Assembly: GCA_016210545.1 (NCBI GenBank)
Contig: JACQTY010000103.1
Span: 194-64,193 of the forward strand
Source of the DNA: Chloroflexota bacterium
GTDB lineage: Bacteria; Chloroflexota; Dehalococcoidia; JACVQG01
Reading direction: 5' to 3'
DNA length: 64,000 nt
The notes under the pieces were generated by a model. It did no database searches and was not told where the DNA came from. It saw only the letters and a list, made by a program, of their open reading frames with translations. Both the position numbers and the translations under genes were made by a program. Below, piece by piece: positions 25,799 to 60,206 of this stretch; position 1 is the stretch's first letter; the number at the start of each line of letters is the position of its first letter.

Positions 25799-27232
25799 AT
25801 GAAGGTCCTTCTAATCAATCCCAACTACGTCACCCAGGTGTATGGAGAGGAGACTCTGGACTACTTGGTAGCGCCCCTCGGGCTGGCCTACGTAGCGGCA
25901 GTTCTCAAGCGAGACGGTGTGGACGTGAGCTTGCTAGAGGCTAATGCCCTCGGCCTGGGCATGGACGACATAGAAAAAGAGATCAAACGCCAGAAGCCGG
26001 ACCTGGTTGGCATTACGGGGACTACGCCCCTTATTGCCCGGGTAGAGGAAATCGCCCGGCGAGCCAAGTCGGCAGACAAGGGCATCAAAGTGGTGGTGGG
26101 CGGTCCCCACGCTACCATTCTTCCCCAGGAGGTGTTGAAAAGCCAGAACATCGACTTCTGTGTGCGCGGGGAAGGTGAAATCACTGCCCTCGAGCTTGTG
26201 AAGGCATTGGAAAAGGGCGGCGACTTTGGCGCCATTCTGGGGCTGGGATTCAAGAGCAACGGGCAGATCCACCTGAATGACAGCCGCCCGCTCATCAAAG
26301 AACTGGACAGTCTCCCATTCCCGGCCAGGGAGTTGCTCCCGATGGAAAAGTATATTTTCCCTCTTCCTACGGGTGCAGTGGCGCGGTTCACCAACCTCAT
26401 CTCAAGCCGGGGTTGCCCGTACCTTTGCACTTTCTGTGGGCAGCACAATATCTGGACGCGCCTGGTGAGGTTCAGAAGCCCGAAGAATGTTGTCGATGAG
26501 ATACAGGCAGTCAAAGACAAATACGGCGTCGCCTTTGTGGGTTTCACCGATAGCAACTTCCCGCTGAACCGCAAGATAACCATGGACATCTGTGACGAGA
26601 TGGCGGCGCGTGGGATCAAGATAAAGTGGGCCTGTGGCTCACGGGTGGACCTGGTAGACCAGGAATTGCTGAGAAAGATGCACAAGGCTGGATGTCAGCA
26701 GATCAACTTCGGCGTGGAGTCGGGAAACGCCGAGATCCTGAAGGGTTACAAGAAGGGCATCACCATTGACCAGGCCAAGACTGCCATAAAGCAGGCGAAG
26801 AAGGCCGGACTCAAGGTGTATACCTACTTCATGGTGGGGGGGCCGGGCGAAACCAGGGAGACGGCGGAGGAGACGATCAAGTTGGCCTAGAAACTCGACC
26901 CCGACTACGCCCAGTTCTCCGTTGCCACGCCATTTCCGGGGACGGAGCTATTTGAGATGGCCAACGCTGGGGGCGCGCTGGGGAGCTACGATTGGACTCA
27001 GTTCCTGACCTATCAGGCGCCCCTATTCGCTACGAAGAACCTTTCCGCAGCGGAGCTCGAGGAACTCAAGGCCAGAGCGTTCCGCAGCTTCTACCTCCGG
27101 CCGTCTCTGATGTTGAAGAAGGCACTGCAAATCAGGTCTTTGTCCGATATCAAGATTCTGGCCAAGGGGTTCCGTTTTGCTTTGAAGCTGGGTAAGGGGA
27201 AGGCAGCAGCGGCCGCGGCCAAAACATCCTAG
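25799..27232 (+). pseudogene. B12-binding radical SAM protein, paralog 2, interrupted by an in-frame TAG at 26888-26890
   Basis: GGPHAT and GCPYLCTFC motifs. The reading frame continues unbroken after the TAG as KLDPDYAQFSVATPFPGTELFEM..., which aligns to the paralogs (ELDPFAINLSIATPYPGTEL, VSPLWPMYSIVTPYPGTEL). The TAG sits where paralogs have Lys or Tyr (AAG/TAY), one substitution away. Intact length would be 477 aa. Confidence 0.65.
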
Positions 27233-27234
27233 TA

Positions 27235-27292
27235 GCATGTAACATTTACTTTTGATACTGGTGGCACAGGCGTCTCTGCCTGTGCAATGGCG
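27235..27292 (+). ncRNA. copy 1 of a conserved ~35-nt motif plus GC hairpin (unknown RNA/regulatory element)
   Basis: AGTAGCATGTAACATTTACTTTTGATACTGGTGGCAC followed by the hairpin GCACAGGC-gtctct-GCCTGTGC. Second copy at 58985-59043 has the same motif and a different but structurally equivalent hairpin. Confidence 0.4.
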
Positions 27293-28204
27293 AAAAATGC
27301 CCTGTTACAGCGTACTAGCAAGACGTCCGTCGGCTCAAGGCAAACTGCTGGAAGGAGTTGCACCCAAATAGAGAACAGCGATTCCAAAGGCGCCAGAAGA
27401 TTCGAGTTGGCCCAAGTCTGGGAGAAGGATTTCTGGGCAAACGTGTGGACGGACGACCGGGCCAGGCAGACCAAGGCCAGGTCATACTGGGAACACTACA
27501 TAGCCGTCCTCAAGGAGTACGCGCGTCTGAAGACGGACGACAGGGTGCTGGATGTGGGCTGCGGTCCCTTCGGCATGATCAGCTATCTCGCCCAGGGGCA
27601 GAGGTTTGGCCTGGACTCCTTGATGCACTTCTATCTGGCCAGTTTCGATATGGAGAAGGAGGTGACCTGGGCGAGCGGCGGCGCAGAGAGTTTGCCTTTT
27701 GATGACGCATTCTTCGATGTGGTTATATGTACAAACACTATAGACCATACACGGGTGCCACAAAGGGCGCTGGCCGAAATGAACAGGGTACTCAAGAGTG
27801 ACGGGGTTCTCTTCTTGACCGTGCATATCTACTCCCGGCGTGTGAGAACCGTCAAGGCGTTTCTGGAGAGAGTAGGTTGGGGAGACCCTCCACATCCCTA
27901 TTCGTTTAATGTCCCAGACGTAAAGCGCCTGTTAAGTGAGTCGGGCTTCAAGCTGACTGGCTTGAGACACGGCATCGGCAATCTGGATTTCTGGGTTGGG
28001 GGCGAGAAGACCGGAGACCCAAAAACTTTTGTCTCCAGGACCAGGGACTACGGCAACAGGGCCGTGGCAATTGGGAGAAGTAAGGGCGCCCGGGTACTGT
28101 TCAAAACACTGGTGAGGTTTGCCCTGCTCTTTTTGCTGATGGATACGCAGAGGTCAGCCGATACAATATTCCTGGCCAGGAAGAAAGCTAGCGCCTCCGT
28201 TTGA
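27287..28204 (+). CDS. class I SAM-dependent methyltransferase
   Basis: Motif I VLDVGCGPFG, an acidic motif II and motif III VLKSDGVLFLTVH. Confidence 0.75.
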   Translation: MAKNALLQRTSKTSVGSRQTAGRSCTQIENSDSKGARRFELAQVWEKDFWANVWTDDRARQTKARSYWEHYIAVLKEYARLKTDDRVLDVGCGPFGMISYLAQGQRFGLDSLMHFYLASFDMEKEVTWASGGAESLPFDDAFFDVVICTNTIDHTRVPQRALAEMNRVLKSDGVLFLTVHIYSRRVRTVKAFLERVGWGDPPHPYSFNVPDVKRLLSESGFKLTGLRHGIGNLDFWVGGEKTGDPKTFVSRTRDYGNRAVAIGRSKGARVLFKTLVRFALLFLLMDTQRSADTIFLARKKASASV

Positions 28205-37317: not shown

Positions 37318-38008
37318 GCCAAATGTAGTGGGCATAGTGCCCGCCCGGGGCGGCTCTAAAGGCATACCCAGAAAGAACATCAGGCCTCTTTTGGGAAAGC
37401 CGCTGATACACTATACTCTTAGCGCGGCTCTACGATGTAAAGCTCTTGACAGGGTAGTGGTATCTACCGAAGATGAGGAGATAGCCAGAATAGCCAAAGC
37501 ATGCGGCGCCGAGGTAGTTGCCAGGCCCGGAGAACTGGCTCAAGATGATACACCTTCGATCCCTGTGTTCCGCCACGTGGTCGAACACCTGAAGCGTGAA
37601 GAGGGCTACCTGGCGGACATCATCGTTGTTCTCCAGCCCACCTCGCCCTTGAGGAAAGCGGAGGACATCGAGGCCGGAATCAGAAAATACCAGGGCAATC
37701 CCTGCGACTCGGTGATCAGCGTCTGCCCGGTGGAGCACCCGCCGCAGTGGATGTACCGCCTGGAAGGTGATAGAATGGTAGCTTTGCTGGGCGAGGACAA
37801 GCGGGTGTTGCGCCGACAAGACGCACCGACGGTATACCGGCTCAACGGGGCAGTGTATGTAGTGGGCAGGGACTGGCTGATGGCCAAAGACTGGCTTATC
37901 GGAGACAATTCCTTGGCTTTCGTGATGGCCCCGGAGCGGTCGCTGGATATAGATACGGAGATGGACTTGGTCATAGCTGAGGCTTTTCTGAGAGGAAGGC
38001 CAGGCTAA
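37310..38008 (+). CDS. acylneuraminate cytidylyltransferase family (NeuA/PseF/LegF-like CMP-sugar synthetase)
   Basis: N-terminal VGIVPARGGSKGIPRKNI signature of the CTP_transf_3 family. 232 aa. Confidence 0.8.
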   Translation: MTKPNVVGIVPARGGSKGIPRKNIRPLLGKPLIHYTLSAALRCKALDRVVVSTEDEEIARIAKACGAEVVARPGELAQDDTPSIPVFRHVVEHLKREEGYLADIIVVLQPTSPLRKAEDIEAGIRKYQGNPCDSVISVCPVEHPPQWMYRLEGDRMVALLGEDKRVLRRQDAPTVYRLNGAVYVVGRDWLMAKDWLIGDNSLAFVMAPERSLDIDTEMDLVIAEAFLRGRPG

Positions 38009-38150: not shown

Positions 38151-39014
38151 ATGGGGACGAGGTGGGGGAAAGTTAAAGTTGACATATCGCAGGTCTACGC
38201 GGAAGTAACAAGTTGCGCTTCGTCCTTCCCCGAGGTAGAGGCTGTGCTTCTCTTTGGTTCTCGCGCTCGCCAGGAGGAAACCCCTCTGAGTGATGTGGAC
38301 CTGGCCTATCTCCTGGAAAAGGGGTTGGCGCCGTCTACCGAGGCAGAGATAGACACAAAGCTCTACAATGGGATAAGCCGAATCCTGGGCACTGATGAGA
38401 TAACACTATTAGACCTCGGTAAAGCTCCTCTTTCCATAGCCTTCTCTGTGTTTCAGGAGGGGAGGGTGTTGTTCTCCCGGAATCCCCAAAGGTTGGCGGC
38501 TCTTCAGGAACGAACGTTGATTCTCTATCCTGAAATCCACCGGTTCAGGACTGAAACGCTCGCCGAGTTTGAGAGGAGCTTAAAGGGGGGGCAGATGGAT
38601 GTCTCGCGGGAGAGAATCCTTTATTACTTGCGCTTCGTCAAAGAAGAGGTAACCAGATTGAAAGAACTGGCAAACCTAACCAAAGAGGAGTATCTCGCCA
38701 ACAGCGATAGCCAGATAGTGGCCGAGAGAAGATTTCAGAGAGCCGTGGAAAGCTGTCTCAACATAGGCAATCATATTATCTCCAAACAGGGACTAAGGCT
38801 GGCTGAGGATTATGCATCCGTGTTTAGGGTCCTGGCTGAGTCTCACATCATATCCGGGAAACTTGCTGAGCGGATGTCTGATATGGCCAGGTTCAGGAAT
38901 CTCCTGGTCCACGTCTACTGGAATATTGACCACGAAAAGATATATGAGCAGATGCCTGAAAGAATCAGCGCCCTGGACTCTTTCATAGATGAAATCCACA
39001 CATTTATTACTTAG
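38151..39014 (+). CDS. fused minimal nucleotidyltransferase (MntA-like) - HepT/DUF86 (HEPN) protein
   Basis: N-terminal LLFGSRARQEETPLSDVDLAYLL (GS...D.D Pol-beta NTase motif). C-terminal RFRNLLVHVYWNIDHEKIY (Rx4HxY HEPN motif). About 50% GC versus about 60% upstream. Confidence 0.7.
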   Translation: MGTRWGKVKVDISQVYAEVTSCASSFPEVEAVLLFGSRARQEETPLSDVDLAYLLEKGLAPSTEAEIDTKLYNGISRILGTDEITLLDLGKAPLSIAFSVFQEGRVLFSRNPQRLAALQERTLILYPEIHRFRTETLAEFERSLKGGQMDVSRERILYYLRFVKEEVTRLKELANLTKEEYLANSDSQIVAERRFQRAVESCLNIGNHIISKQGLRLAEDYASVFRVLAESHIISGKLAERMSDMARFRNLLVHVYWNIDHEKIYEQMPERISALDSFIDEIHTFIT

Positions 39015-39180
39015 CGCAGCTAGAGTTTTGAAGATCGGGAACAGACGGTTGACGAAAGAGCGCTTTATTGAGGATAGCTCCCTGGCCCTGGTGCCAGTGG
39101 GAATATCACTGGACATAGATACGGAGATGGATATTCTCATGGCCGAAGTATTGCTCGCGGCGAGGAGGAAAGCAGGATGA
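38989..39180 (+). pseudogene. C-terminal remnant of a second NeuA/PseF-like cytidylyltransferase
   Basis: Translation ...RVLKIGNRRLTKERFIEDSSLALVPVGISLDIDTEMDILMAEVLLAARRKAG* aligns to the C-terminus of the 37310-38008 product (...AVYVVGRDWLMAKDWLIGDNSLAFVMAPERSLDIDTEMDLVIAEAFLRGRPG*). Its TGA overlaps the ATG of radical SAM paralog 5 (ATGA). Confidence 0.6.
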
Positions 39181-56920: not shown

Positions 56921-57466
56921 TCAGGCCACGTGGCCGATCTTGGGCGGGGGTGGGGTCGGCCCTTTCCAATCAGGAGAGTTCTCCGACTGTATCTTAAGGT
57001 TGCCCGAGGCGTCAAAGAAAGGCCAGAAGATAAAGGCAAGCCACTGCGATGCTTTGTCCGGGTCCAGGTTGAAGTGCTGGTGCTCGCAGCCGCCTGGCTT
57101 CATAGGCAGCACGATCAGATCGTCTTTTTCCCAATCATATCTCACTCCGTCAACCACGGAATAGCCCTTGCCCTCCAGTACGAATAGCCCCAGGCCGCCC
57201 TGGTGCGTATGACGGCCCCCCTGCTTCTTGATATGGTGCACGAAGAGGGCCCAGTGGGGTACGGCCAGGTTCGGCCAGTTCTTGGGATGCGTGTAGAACT
57301 TTATGAGGCCCTGCCGGTTCTGCTCCCAGGGCACGTCTTTCCCTTTGATGACCACCGTCCCCTTTTCCCCCTGCTCCCTGCGGACACGGTAGAACTCCTG
57401 CATGTACTCGAAGATAAGTTCCTCGGGTTCGGGTTCTCTGCGCCGTTCGATGACTTTCTCGGTCAC
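56921..57466 (-). CDS. cupin domain protein (copy A)
   Basis: GTG start after a GGAAGGAAG SD. Cupin motifs HIKKQGGRHTHQGG...LEG and PMKPGGCEHQHFN. 80% identical to copy B. Confidence 0.7.
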   Translation of the reverse strand: MTEKVIERRREPEPEELIFEYMQEFYRVRREQGEKGTVVIKGKDVPWEQNRQGLIKFYTHPKNWPNLAVPHWALFVHHIKKQGGRHTHQGGLGLFVLEGKGYSVVDGVRYDWEKDDLIVLPMKPGGCEHQHFNLDPDKASQWLAFIFWPFFDASGNLKIQSENSPDWKGPTPPPPKIGHVA

Positions 57467-57553
57467 GCTTCCTTCCTTTCTACTCTACGCTGGCCAACAA
57501 CGCCCCGGCTTTGTCCACGTACTCCTTCCTGGAAGACAGTACGCACCCCAAAC

Positions 57554-58702
57554 CTACCTGTTCCACAACTTGACCAGGTACTTGTCGGCGAACAGCTTCG
57601 CCTGCTCGTTCATCATGTCATCCGTCAGCGTTAGCAGCTTCGTATCCACTTTGGCCGCTGGCGGCGTGAAATTCGGTACATCTTTCCTCACCGAGCTGCT
57701 GGCCTTGGCCTCGGCGTTCACTTGTTGTCCCTCTTGAGTGAACAACCAGTTCAGGAACACTCTGGTCGCATTGGGGTGGGGGTTGTCCTTCACCTGCCCG
57801 ATGCCCATCACCAGGGCTACCACACCCTCTTTCATGGAAACCGCCTTTATCGGCGCGCCGGCTTTTACCAGAGATGCCGCATCCGAGTCGACCATGAAAA
57901 GAGACAGGGCGCGCTGCCCCTGGGCCAGCAACTGGGTCTCCTGCTGCACACCCGTGGTAAACCTGATATCCTGATTCGCGAACTGGCGCAACGCGTCTTC
58001 GGTGAAAACCCCGTACCTGACATAACCCACCAAACGGTAAGCGCCGGTGCTGATGGCGGGGTCGGTGGCCATCATCTGGCCCTTCCATTTCGGCTGAAGG
58101 AGGTCCGCCCAGCTCTTGGGCTCGTCACCCGGCTTGACCATGTTGGTATTGATGTAAGGAGGACCCACCAGAGGCATGAATGCCAGTATGACCCCATCCT
58201 TGTCCTGGGACAGCGGCTCCACCGCCCAGACCCCCTTTTCCCCTAATGCCGGCAAACCCTTGGCGCTCGCCGTCATGGTCTCGGCCACCCGGGCGTTGGT
58301 CAAATGAGTCACGGACCCCTCGAACACGTCCGCCGTCATGGCGCCCATCCTCTTCTCGGTCTTCATCCGTTCGACGAATTCCGCGCCGCGGCCCGTTATT
58401 ATGTCCAGGTCAATCCCATACCGGCTCTTGAAGGCCCTCGACATCGCCACACCGGTATCTCCGACCCAGGTATAGCCGTAGACAGTTACCTTGCCTTCCT
58501 TTTTCCCGGCCTGGACCACCTTGTCCCAGGCAGCCTGCTCCGGAGAAGTCTGGGGGGCGCTGACAGGCGCGGCCGCAGTCCTTGCCGGCGCCGGCACGGC
58601 AGGAGCGGGAGCCGGCGGGGGCGCGCAGGCAGCAAGCATCAGAGCGACCAAGGTGGACACAATACCGAGCAGAGCCAATAACTTCTTCATCTTTCGCCTC
58701 AA
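57554..58702 (-). CDS. ABC-transporter substrate-binding lipoprotein (family 1), paralog A, orphan
   Basis: Signal/lipobox LAACAPP, a Pro/Ala linker, and SBP fold homologous to 10475-11617 and 61228-62364. C-terminus FADKYLVKLWNR. Confidence 0.8.
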   Translation of the reverse strand: MRRKMKKLLALLGIVSTLVALMLAACAPPPAPAPAVPAPARTAAAPVSAPQTSPEQAAWDKVVQAGKKEGKVTVYGYTWVGDTGVAMSRAFKSRYGIDLDIITGRGAEFVERMKTEKRMGAMTADVFEGSVTHLTNARVAETMTASAKGLPALGEKGVWAVEPLSQDKDGVILAFMPLVGPPYINTNMVKPGDEPKSWADLLQPKWKGQMMATDPAISTGAYRLVGYVRYGVFTEDALRQFANQDIRFTTGVQQETQLLAQGQRALSLFMVDSDAASLVKAGAPIKAVSMKEGVVALVMGIGQVKDNPHPNATRVFLNWLFTQEGQQVNAEAKASSSVRKDVPNFTPPAAKVDTKLLTLTDDMMNEQAKLFADKYLVKLWNR

Positions 58703-58984
58703 TTCTTGTCTCGCCTGCCCGGAGACTGTCGCTAACCCGGACCCGGCTGACTAAAAGTAATTGCACTCATTCTATCATTTCTCGGCGTTTTGTAAAGCCC
58801 GACCATGGCGCTCGTTTGGGTGCAGCCCCACGGCCAACTGCAAGACAGGGCAAGAGACGCCGAGACAAGGGGGTCCAGACATCGTGTACTCAGGGCCGAG
58901 AAACCCGGGGATGGGGCAAGTCGGGGTTCTGTCGCCGCCTGGGCCAGAAGTGGCCCCGCTGCAGTGGGGCCACTTCTGGCCAGT

Positions 58985-59043
58985 AGCATGTAACGTTTGC
59001 TGTTGATACTGGTGGCACCCCGACTTGTCGGGGCCTGTGCGGT
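58985..59043 (+). ncRNA. copy 2 of the conserved motif plus GC hairpin
   Basis: AGTAGCATGTAACGTTTGCTGTTGATACTGGTGGCAC followed by CCCCGA-cttg-TCGGGG flanked by GCAC...GTGC. Compare copy 1 at 27235-27292, which has 31/35 identical motif positions and compensatory stem changes. Confidence 0.4.
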
Positions 59044-59086
59044 AGCGACAAAGATGCTGCTACAAGGTATTAGGCGTATAGCCTTC

Positions 59087-59629
59087 TCAACCGACGTGAG
59101 GCGGGACAGGCGGCGGTTCGTTGGGGCCTTTCCAGTCGGGGGAAGTCTCCGATTGCACCTTCAGGTTACCCGTGGCATCCCAGAACGGATTGAATATGAA
59201 AGCGAGCCACTCCGACGGCTTGTCCGATAGGTTGAAGTGCTGGTGCTCGCAGCCACCAGGCTTCATGGGCAGCAGGATCAGGTCGTCCTTCTCCCAGTCA
59301 AACCGGACTCCGTCCACTACCGAGTAGCCCTTGCCCTCCAGCACGAACAGGCCGAGACCACCCTGATGGGTGTGCCTGCCCCCTTGTTTCTTGATATAGT
59401 GGACGAACAAGGACCAACCGGGGGCCGCCAGGCTGCGCCAGTTCTTAGGATGGGTGTAGAAGTGGATCAGCCCCTGCCGGTTCTGCTCCCAGGGAACATC
59501 CTTTCCCTTCACTACGATAGTGCCCTTCTCCCCTTGCTCCCTTCTTACCCGGTAGTACTCCTGCAGGTATTCGAATACGAGTTCCTGAGGTTCGGGCTCT
59601 TTGCGACGTTCGACAACTCTTTCAGTCAC
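59087..59629 (-). CDS. cupin domain protein (copy B)
   Basis: GTG start (VTERVVERRKEPEP) preceded by AGGAGGA. Same cupin motifs as copy A. The track ORF start at 59791 is an out-of-frame-looking 5' extension. Confidence 0.7.
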   Translation of the reverse strand: MTERVVERRKEPEPQELVFEYLQEYYRVRREQGEKGTIVVKGKDVPWEQNRQGLIHFYTHPKNWRSLAAPGWSLFVHYIKKQGGRHTHQGGLGLFVLEGKGYSVVDGVRFDWEKDDLILLPMKPGGCEHQHFNLSDKPSEWLAFIFNPFWDATGNLKVQSETSPDWKGPNEPPPVPPHVG

Positions 59630-59640
59630 AATTCCTCCTA

Positions 59641-59781
59641 CTATCTGTTTGCAAGGCCAACGGCTTGACGGTTCCACAGCTTGACCAGGTACTTGGCGCT
59701 GAACAACGTGGCGTACTCGTTCAGCATGTCGGCGGTGAGCACCAACAGTTTGGTCTGCACCTGAGCAGCGGGTAGGCTCAT
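59641..59781 (-). pseudogene. remnant of an SBP gene (C-terminal 46 codons retaining an RBS and ATG)
   Basis: Translates to MSLPAAQVQTKLLVLTADMLNEYATLFSAKYLVKLWNRQAVGLANR*. This aligns to the SBP-A C-terminus ...AKVDTKLLTLTDDMMNEQAKLFADKYLVKLWNR*. The nucleotide sequence also parallels 57554-57640. Confidence 0.6.
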
Positions 59782-60206
59782 TTCCTCTCATATCGAGTAA
59801 TCGCGATAACCTGGCCTCTTGACCCTCTCGGCTCAGGAGGCCAGGTTGCCCCTATTATAAAGGCGCAGTCTCCGGCTTGGCAATAGGGAGAACGTCCAAA
59901 ATCCACCACCCGTTGAATCTTGGCAAAACAGCATCTTTTTCACCAAATTGGTGCAGCAACTGTCTTGGAGAGGCCGCTATGACCTCTCCCTTTGGAAAAG
60001 GGAGACTGAGAGGGATAATGATGGCGGATTAAGAACGTACTGTCACACGCGGGTTATGGGGGATTACGAAGAGGCTGGCAAGTCGTTGGAACCACTACGT
60101 AGAGACGCGCAGGCCAGATCAATGCGCGGTTCAGCCCTGCGGACCGGGCAAGGCCGTCCTATGACGGTCACTGAGCAGATATAGTGGAGCTGCCATCCGA
60201 CAAAAC

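Follow-up and report, generated by a model that had tools for sequence, protein, structure and literature searches.

A short repeated sequence is present at two places in the window, that is, in the whole stretch of 64,000 nucleotides of Chloroflexi DNA that we analyzed (Table 1). Copy 1 lies in the sense orientation inside a long plus-strand glycan-biosynthesis operon with genes for a glycosyltransferase, a B12-radical-SAM protein, a methyltransferase, a GDP-mannose dehydratase, and an aminotransferase. Copy 2 is located in the spacer between a cupin gene and a solute-binding-protein (SBP) gene, 13 nt past the stop codon of the cupin gene and ∼280 nt upstream of the SBP gene, and is antisense to both of these minus-strand neighbors.

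Extent and anatomy of the two copies

The window contains two occurrences of the motif AGTAGCATGTAAC(R)TTT(R)CT(K)TTGATACTGGTGGCAC, each on the plus strand (27231-27267 and 58982-59018), with 34 of its 37 bases identical between the copies. When up to three mismatches were allowed, it had no match in 100 dinucleotide-preserving shuffles. The sequence-only reading of this DNA had described a two-copy motif of ∼35 nt with 31 of 35 identical positions. The two copies stand, but the positions given were 3-4 nt off and the identity is 34/37. The real repeat is also longer, extending over ∼90 nt in a pairwise alignment of 27229-27318 with 58980-59073, at whose ends the similarity stops abruptly in both copies. 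Outside the left arm (51-57 nt) the identity was 63%, compared to 47 ± 5% for random window segments, and the whole repeats are only 73% identical. The 60-nt flanks of the two copies are 53% and 45% identical, with a random level of 47 ± 4%. Because the similarity falls to random in the flanks, the repeat is a discrete ∼90-nt unit and not a segmental duplication that includes its flanks, the origin that had been named as speaking against a functional or mobile motif. The two copies in the window are diverged and probably old.

Table 1. Coordinates of the repeat copies and their parts in the window.
Feature	Position	Strand	Description and basis
Copy 1 with both CTAG repeats	27229..27318	+	90 nt; L001 alignment, similarity bounds
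Left target-site duplication CTAG	27229..27232	.	Sequence, ORF end at 27232, L001 empty site
37-nt left arm (family D15)	27231..27267	+	92% identical to 58982-59018; best-conserved part of the element
Left terminal inverted repeat TAGCATGTAACA	27233..27244	+	Inverted-repeat arms
Internal GC hairpin, copy 1	27264..27285	+	8-bp stem GCACAGGC/GCCTGTGC, 6-nt loop GTCTCT
ATG inside the element	27287..27289	+	In frame with the downstream methyltransferase ORF; not the annotated start
Right terminal inverted repeat TGTTACAGCGTA	27303..27314	+	Inverted-repeat arms
Right target-site duplication CTAG	27315..27318	.	Sequence, L001 empty site
Copy 2 with degenerate flanking repeats	58980..59073	+	Element proper 58984-59069, 86 nt
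Internal hairpin, copy 2	59015..59040	+	CCCCGA-CTTG-TCGGGG nested in GCAC...GTGC

Copy 1 has the layout CTAG-TAGCATGTAACA...TGTTACAGCGTA-CTAG, and the TAG within its left CTAG is the stop codon (27230-27232) of the upstream B12-radical-SAM ORF. Its terminal inverted repeats (TIRs) are imperfect (CTAGTAGCATGTAACA / TGTTACAGCGTACTAG). The 16-nt arms that include CTAG (27229-27244 and 27303-27318) are 81% complementary, and without CTAG the TIRs are short and match at 9 of 12 positions. Copy 2 is flanked by the degenerate repeats CCAG (58980-58983) and TTAG (59070-59073) and has weaker TIRs than copy 1 (∼10 of 15 positions by eye), both of which are expected of an older insertion. Neither copy contains an ORF that lies wholly inside it, and the ATG at 27287 reads out into the neighboring gene.

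The left end of copy 2 is abutted by a 40-nt near-perfect palindrome (58942-58981; GGCCAGAAGTGGCCCCGCTG / CAGTGGGGCCACTTCTGGCC, 95% complementary) that has no T-run on either strand. This palindrome could be the terminator-like hairpin of the cupin gene, with the element inserted beside it. The cupin and SBP genes themselves (56921-59791, minus strand) form tandemly duplicated modules (57066-57365 vs 59229-59528, 79%; 57560-57661 vs 59671-59772, 74%), and the order SBP-cupin-SBP-cupin is also found in a Dehalococcoidia MAG (L002, 752-4313).

The copy 1 junction in a related strain

For a related strain, a Logan contig of 2.2 kb (L001, SRR22387965) covers the radical-SAM/methyltransferase junction and is collinear there with the window. 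It is ∼92% identical over the 700 nt upstream, and its methyltransferase (P0002) is 85% identical in protein sequence to the homologue in the window. The junction in L001 reads ...GCCAAAGTATC-CTAG-CATGACGCCGG... (...GTATC-CTAG-CATGACG...), with a single CTAG and no element, and the junction in the window reads ...GCCAAAACATC-CTAG-[TAGCATGTAAC...CAGCGTA-CTAG]-CAAGACGTCCG... (flanks ACATC and CAAGACG). The DNA missing from L001 is exactly 86 bp, which corresponds to the 82-bp element proper (27233-27314) and one CTAG. The bounds of this indel are the same as the bounds of the similarity between the two copies and as the TIRs, and this three-way coincidence of limits characterizes the insertion of a transposable element with duplication of its target site. 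Hence, the insertion of copy 1 added 86 bp and duplicated a target site of either CTAG or the inner TA; the CTAG palindrome contains TA, so that a 4-bp and a 2-bp duplication give identical sequence. A small mobile motif had been one of two suggestions made in the sequence-only reading, and it is borne out by the TIRs, the CTAG at both ends, and the precise absence from the L001 site.

The polarity of the copy 1 indel rests on one relative (L001), and the contigs encoding P0003 and P0004, which we checked for polarizing it, are not syntenic at the junction. For copy 2, no element is present in the orthologous cupin-SBP spacers of the more distant L002 and L003 (Dehalococcoidia MAGs) and of L022, and the spacer in L002 has a classical terminator in its place. 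Owing to their divergence, these three spacers do not reveal an exact empty site for copy 2. Far fewer CTAG tetranucleotides are present in the window than base composition predicts (59 observed vs 242 expected), and a CTAG-targeting element would therefore find few landing sites.

Copy 1 had been placed immediately 5' of the methyltransferase start codon. However, the ATG at 27287 lies within the repeat, and the start annotated by NCBI is a TTG at 27407. The in-frame ATG creates the 305-aa ORF that had been taken as the methyltransferase, and its position inside the element means that the first 10 codons of this long ORF would be element-derived if the ATG is used. A 100% identical methyltransferase of 265 aa (P0001, from a 'Chloroflexi bacterium' MAG) is listed at NCBI with TTG 27407 as its start, the more distant homologues P0003 and P0004 begin near 27407, and L001 has GTG there. 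In view of these starts, the region 27233-27406 is probably an untranslated spacer that was enlarged by the insertion. A conserved N-terminal peptide (MAKNALLQ vs VATKMLLQ) was considered and rejected, as the frame in copy 2 runs over the cupin gene of the opposite strand, and homologues of the methyltransferase have no such extension.

In L001, the TAG stop codon of the radical-SAM gene lies within the CTAG, and a single nucleotide separates it from the ATG with which the next called ORF begins (TAGCATG). The ATG abutting CTAG in L001 (CTAGCATG) corresponds to CAAG in the window (27319-27322), where the old ATG reads AAG (27320-27322). The duplication kept the stop codon of the radical-SAM gene and moved the downstream gene 86 bp away. 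The B12-binding radical-SAM ORF (25799-27232, plus strand) also carries an in-frame TAG at 26888-26890 (GCC TAG AAA), where L001 has AAG (Lys). This codon splits the gene into ORFs of 363 aa and 91 aa, and the split gene is either a pseudogene or the product of an assembly or consensus error. With a nonsense codon in the adjacent radical-SAM gene in addition to the insertion, the copy 1 locus may be decaying or being rewired in this strain.

Hairpins, folding, and the search for related sequences

A GC-rich hairpin had been noted to follow each copy of the motif, and we found it at both loci (Table 1). The reported lack of a U-tract was likewise confirmed, since a terminator scan revealed no T-run or terminator-like site at either locus. 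The claim of covariation in the stem fared differently: RNAalifold on the two copies gave 22 pairs, none of them with changes on both sides, in a test that has low power with n = 2 sequences. The 3' half of the hairpin, GCCTGTGC, is unchanged between the copies. On the 5' side, an indel or a replacement separates the copies (AGGCGTCTCT vs CCCGACTTGTCGGG), and the sequence in copy 2 is self-complementary. At this place, each copy has a self-complementary insert of its own, which is not covariation.

As RNA, copy 1 folds with −34.5 kcal/mol (z = −3.2 compared to shuffles, on either strand), while copy 2 folds no better than shuffles (z = −0.5 on the plus strand and −1.5 on the minus strand). Folding as single-stranded DNA gave z = −3.2 for copy 1 and −2.0 for copy 2. 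The long closing stem of copy 1 forms because the TIRs pair. The internal hairpins and the foldability are by-products of the inverted-repeat architecture and are no evidence of a selected RNA. A search of the whole window against Rfam 15 at the gathering threshold gave no match, a search of both loci at E ≤ 10 gave only sub-threshold chance matches, mostly to miRNA and snoRNA models, and a scan for sigma-70 promoters found no consensus in either copy.

A Logan contig from the same organism (L021, SRR12113390) is 100% identical to the window. Its positions 1-53 correspond to 59032-58980 of the window (minus strand), and the contig end falls exactly within the palindromic hairpin of copy 2, where the palindrome probably caused the assembly to break.

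Searches with nhmmer and blastn-short through the window and all fetched loci returned only the two copies, plus the one in L021 from the same organism. The pattern GCATGTAAC-N10-TGATACTGGTGG had no match in 185,579 species-representative genomes or in JGI metagenomes. The sequence CTNTTGATACTGGTGGCAC matched 16 times in the 185,579 genomes, which equals the chance expectation, and none of these matches was accompanied by the rest of the element. The left-end 20-mer was absent from JGI metagenomes, and no copy of the element was found in a viral scan (IMG/VR) or by blastn against plasmids and phages. The search for further or orthologous copies that the sequence-only reading had proposed as a check thus yielded none in the genome, metagenome, viral, plasmid, and phage collections searched. 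The terminal 12-mer has no second occurrence in the 64-kb window, and no autonomous IS with matching ends was seen. Pfam detected no transposase domain among the 40 ORFs of the window that were scanned, which cover part of the glycan cluster.

Origin of the repeat

We consider the repeat to be a MITE-like, non-autonomous DNA transposon of 82-86 bp that is mobilized in trans, and we give this reading a probability of about 80%. It is based on the insertion/empty-site polymorphism, on the TIRs and the CTAG duplication, and on the unit being discrete and too short to code for anything, as well as on the presence of two copies in unrelated contexts and in opposite orientations relative to the neighboring genes. 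Several of the features by which MITEs are recognized are found here: small non-coding size, TIRs, a target-site duplication (in copy 1), and presence/absence polymorphism. MITEs usually have a high copy number, and here there are two copies, in a 64-kb window. The 37-nt motif is the best-conserved arm of this ∼82-86-bp miniature transposable element, which is an ordinary kind of bacterial repeat and not a new regulatory RNA. Judging from its conservation, the left arm is the probable transposase-binding end; the contrast between 92% identity within this arm and 63% outside it is not explained by a neutral relic by itself.

In the mechanism that we propose, a transposase encoded elsewhere in the genome would bind the TIRs and excise the element, which would re-insert at a CTAG site via staggered cuts, and gap repair would leave a target-site duplication of CTAG (4 bp) or TA (2 bp). 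Copy 1 landed on the CTAG that held the stop codon of the B12-radical-SAM gene. We infer that the cut-and-paste enzyme is a DDE transposase with the 37-nt left arm as its binding site. The target suggests either an IS5-like enzyme (4-bp CTAG/YTAR) or an IS630/Tc1-mariner-like enzyme (TA within CTAG). IS630 itself prefers CTAG and duplicates the central TA. Elements of the IS630/Tc1-mariner group such as ISY100 duplicate TA (PMC2170065). The CTAG of copy 1 fits the 4-bp CTAG/YTAR duplication of IS5-type elements, yet a TA duplication in CTAG gives the identical sequence, and an origin of the IS630 type is as possible as one of the IS5 type.

Several other readings were weighed against a MITE. 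The repeat could be a Y1/HUH element (an IS200/IS605-derived PATE or a RAYT-mobilized unit similar to REP/REPIN) that inserts 3' of CTAG and ends in CTAG, in which case the apparent duplication would be the target plus the element's own end and there would be no true target-site duplication. A palindromic tetranucleotide at both borders fits a target plus a right-end cleavage site equally well, the element begins with GTAG, which is the tetranucleotide preceding REP palindromes, and it folds well in single-stranded DNA form, with a strong hairpin in its interior. In addition, each copy lies past the stop codon of its upstream gene, copy 1 directly and copy 2 after 13 nt. We nevertheless regard a Y1/HUH element as unlikely, because the symmetry reaches the termini as in DDE-type TIRs, the hairpin is central instead of subterminal at each end and differs in sequence between the copies, REPINs normally occur in tens to hundreds of copies compared to two in 64 kb and none in the collections searched here, and the scanned ORFs of the window include no Y1 transposase. 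It is quite unlikely that the left arm is a co-opted portable functional module, or that the element belongs to an undescribed CTAG-specific single-strand (Y1) transposition system in Chloroflexi. As a module, the left arm might be an operator, an RNA-binding site, or a donor of a start codon or promoter in the glycan-biosynthesis operon, and with the original ATG gone, the in-frame ATG might now come from the element. A structured RNA, either cis-regulatory or small, that is selected for its fold, with the same regulator at the two loci, is close to the novel cis-regulatory RNA that the sequence-only reading had favored. The folding of copy 1, the GC hairpin at the same place in both copies, and the higher conservation of the 37-nt arm compared to the remainder are in line with such an RNA. 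Against it, the element is absent from the orthologous leader of the ∼90%-identical L001 with a clean target-site signature, RNAalifold found no compensatory pairs, copy 2 does not fold better than shuffles, Rfam gave no match, and no orthologous occurrences were found in the genome and metagenome collections searched. The two copies also sit in unrelated gene contexts and are oppositely oriented relative to the flanking genes, and we consider a selected RNA very unlikely.

The repeat might also not be mobile at all, if the 86 bp were ancestral and L001 had lost them by slippage between CTAG microhomologies, with copy 2 as an unrelated old segmental copy. Loss between 4-bp direct repeats gives the same two alleles as an insertion with target-site duplication, and L001 is the only relative available at the junction. 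Such a deletion is highly improbable: its end-points would have to fall by chance exactly where the similarity to a second copy, at a distance of 31.7 kb, stops, and also at the TIRs; CTAG is rare in the window; and the stop codon and next ATG of L001 are tightly apposed, which resembles an intact coupled junction. A sigma-54 promoter (TGGCAC ... TTGC), or another protein-binding regulatory site common to the two operons, is scarcely credible. The consensus for sigma-54 is TGGCACG-N4-TTGCW, and the invariant core of the repeat has CTGGTGGCAC, which matches the −24 element TGGCAC. However, neither copy has TTGC as its −12 element at the required spacing (copy 1 has TCTC there, copy 2 has CTTG). 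Copy 2 is antisense to the two neighboring genes and directed away from them, and the whole unit is an insertion that is absent from L001. Two further candidates were rejected. The ends resemble those of an integron attC site (RYYYAAC / GTTRRRY) only loosely (ATGTAAC / GTTACAG), the indel boundary is at CTAG and not at a GTT core, and no cassette moved along. The copies at 27.2 and 59.0 kb could have been direct repeats serving as att sites of a 31.7-kb island, but the glycan operon continues straight across the left copy, and the identity between the repeats is only 73%.

Among known elements, the closest documented analogue is MITEPsy1 from Pseudomonas syringae pv. phaseolicola, a 100-nt MITE with 18-nt TIRs and a 4-nt CTAG/YTAA duplication, for which transposition was shown experimentally and which is thought to be derived from ISPsy2 of the IS5 family (PMC3189936). 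The element described here shares with MITEPsy1 a size of ∼100 nt, the lack of coding capacity, short imperfect TIRs, insertion at CTAG, an apparently low copy number (6 in MITEPsy1), and intergenic or gene-end positions. The ends of MITEPsy1 (GGAAGGTCTGAAAAAGCC) have no sequence resemblance to those found here (TAGCATGTAACA / TACGCTGTAACA), and so it is an analogue and the present element is not a member of the same family. MITEPsy1 differs from the Chloroflexi element in having a candidate parent (ISPsy2) and shown transposition, and the host phyla differ (Pseudomonas vs a Chloroflexi/Dehalococcoidia-like MAG).

MITEs derived from IS630/Tc1-mariner elements include the Correia elements of Neisseria and RUP of Streptococcus pneumoniae. 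These are ∼100-150 bp long, have TIRs and a TA duplication, and often lie in or beside transcription units, whose expression they can change. In contrast to the element described here, with its two copies in the window and shorter TIRs, they are present in tens to hundreds of copies and have TIRs of ∼24-26 bp. REP/REPIN sequences are short extragenic hairpin units that start with GTAG, lie downstream of genes, and are mobilized by RAYT proteins. The element resembles them as a short extragenic unit with a hairpin, a GTAG start, and a position downstream of a gene. However, REPINs are highly repeated, consist of two inverted REPs each with a palindrome, and lack a target duplication, none of which applies to the two copies found here, which have an asymmetric internal part and no Y1 transposase among the scanned ORFs.

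To our knowledge, MITEs are little documented in uncultured Chloroflexi/Dehalococcoidia-like lineages. The repeat would document an apparently low-copy MITE in such a lineage, inserted on a stop/start junction inside a long cell-surface glycan operon. Annotating it correctly would prevent the misclassification of a transposon relic as a new riboswitch-like RNA, and would show that the long methyltransferase ORF has its ATG at 27287 and its first 10 codons from the element.

The operon around copy 1 belongs to a long one-strand surface-glycan cluster (15553-47061, plus strand). This cluster encodes several paralogous B12-binding radical-SAM enzymes, which share repeats in the CxxxCxxC region (D3, D7, D9, D10, and D12), as well as several SAM methyltransferases and NeuB, PglD-like, DegT, and GDP-mannose dehydratase proteins, and is an unusually radical-SAM-rich sugar-modification locus. 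Inside the cluster, an ORF at 38151-39014 encodes a nucleotidyltransferase (Polbeta/MNT) fused to a HepT-like RNase, a toxin-antitoxin-type module. It is flanked by a diverged repeat (D11, ∼70%; 37880-38008 vs 39046-39170) that corresponds to the 3' end of the preceding cytidylyltransferase gene, which suggests that the toxin-antitoxin-type module was inserted by recombination.
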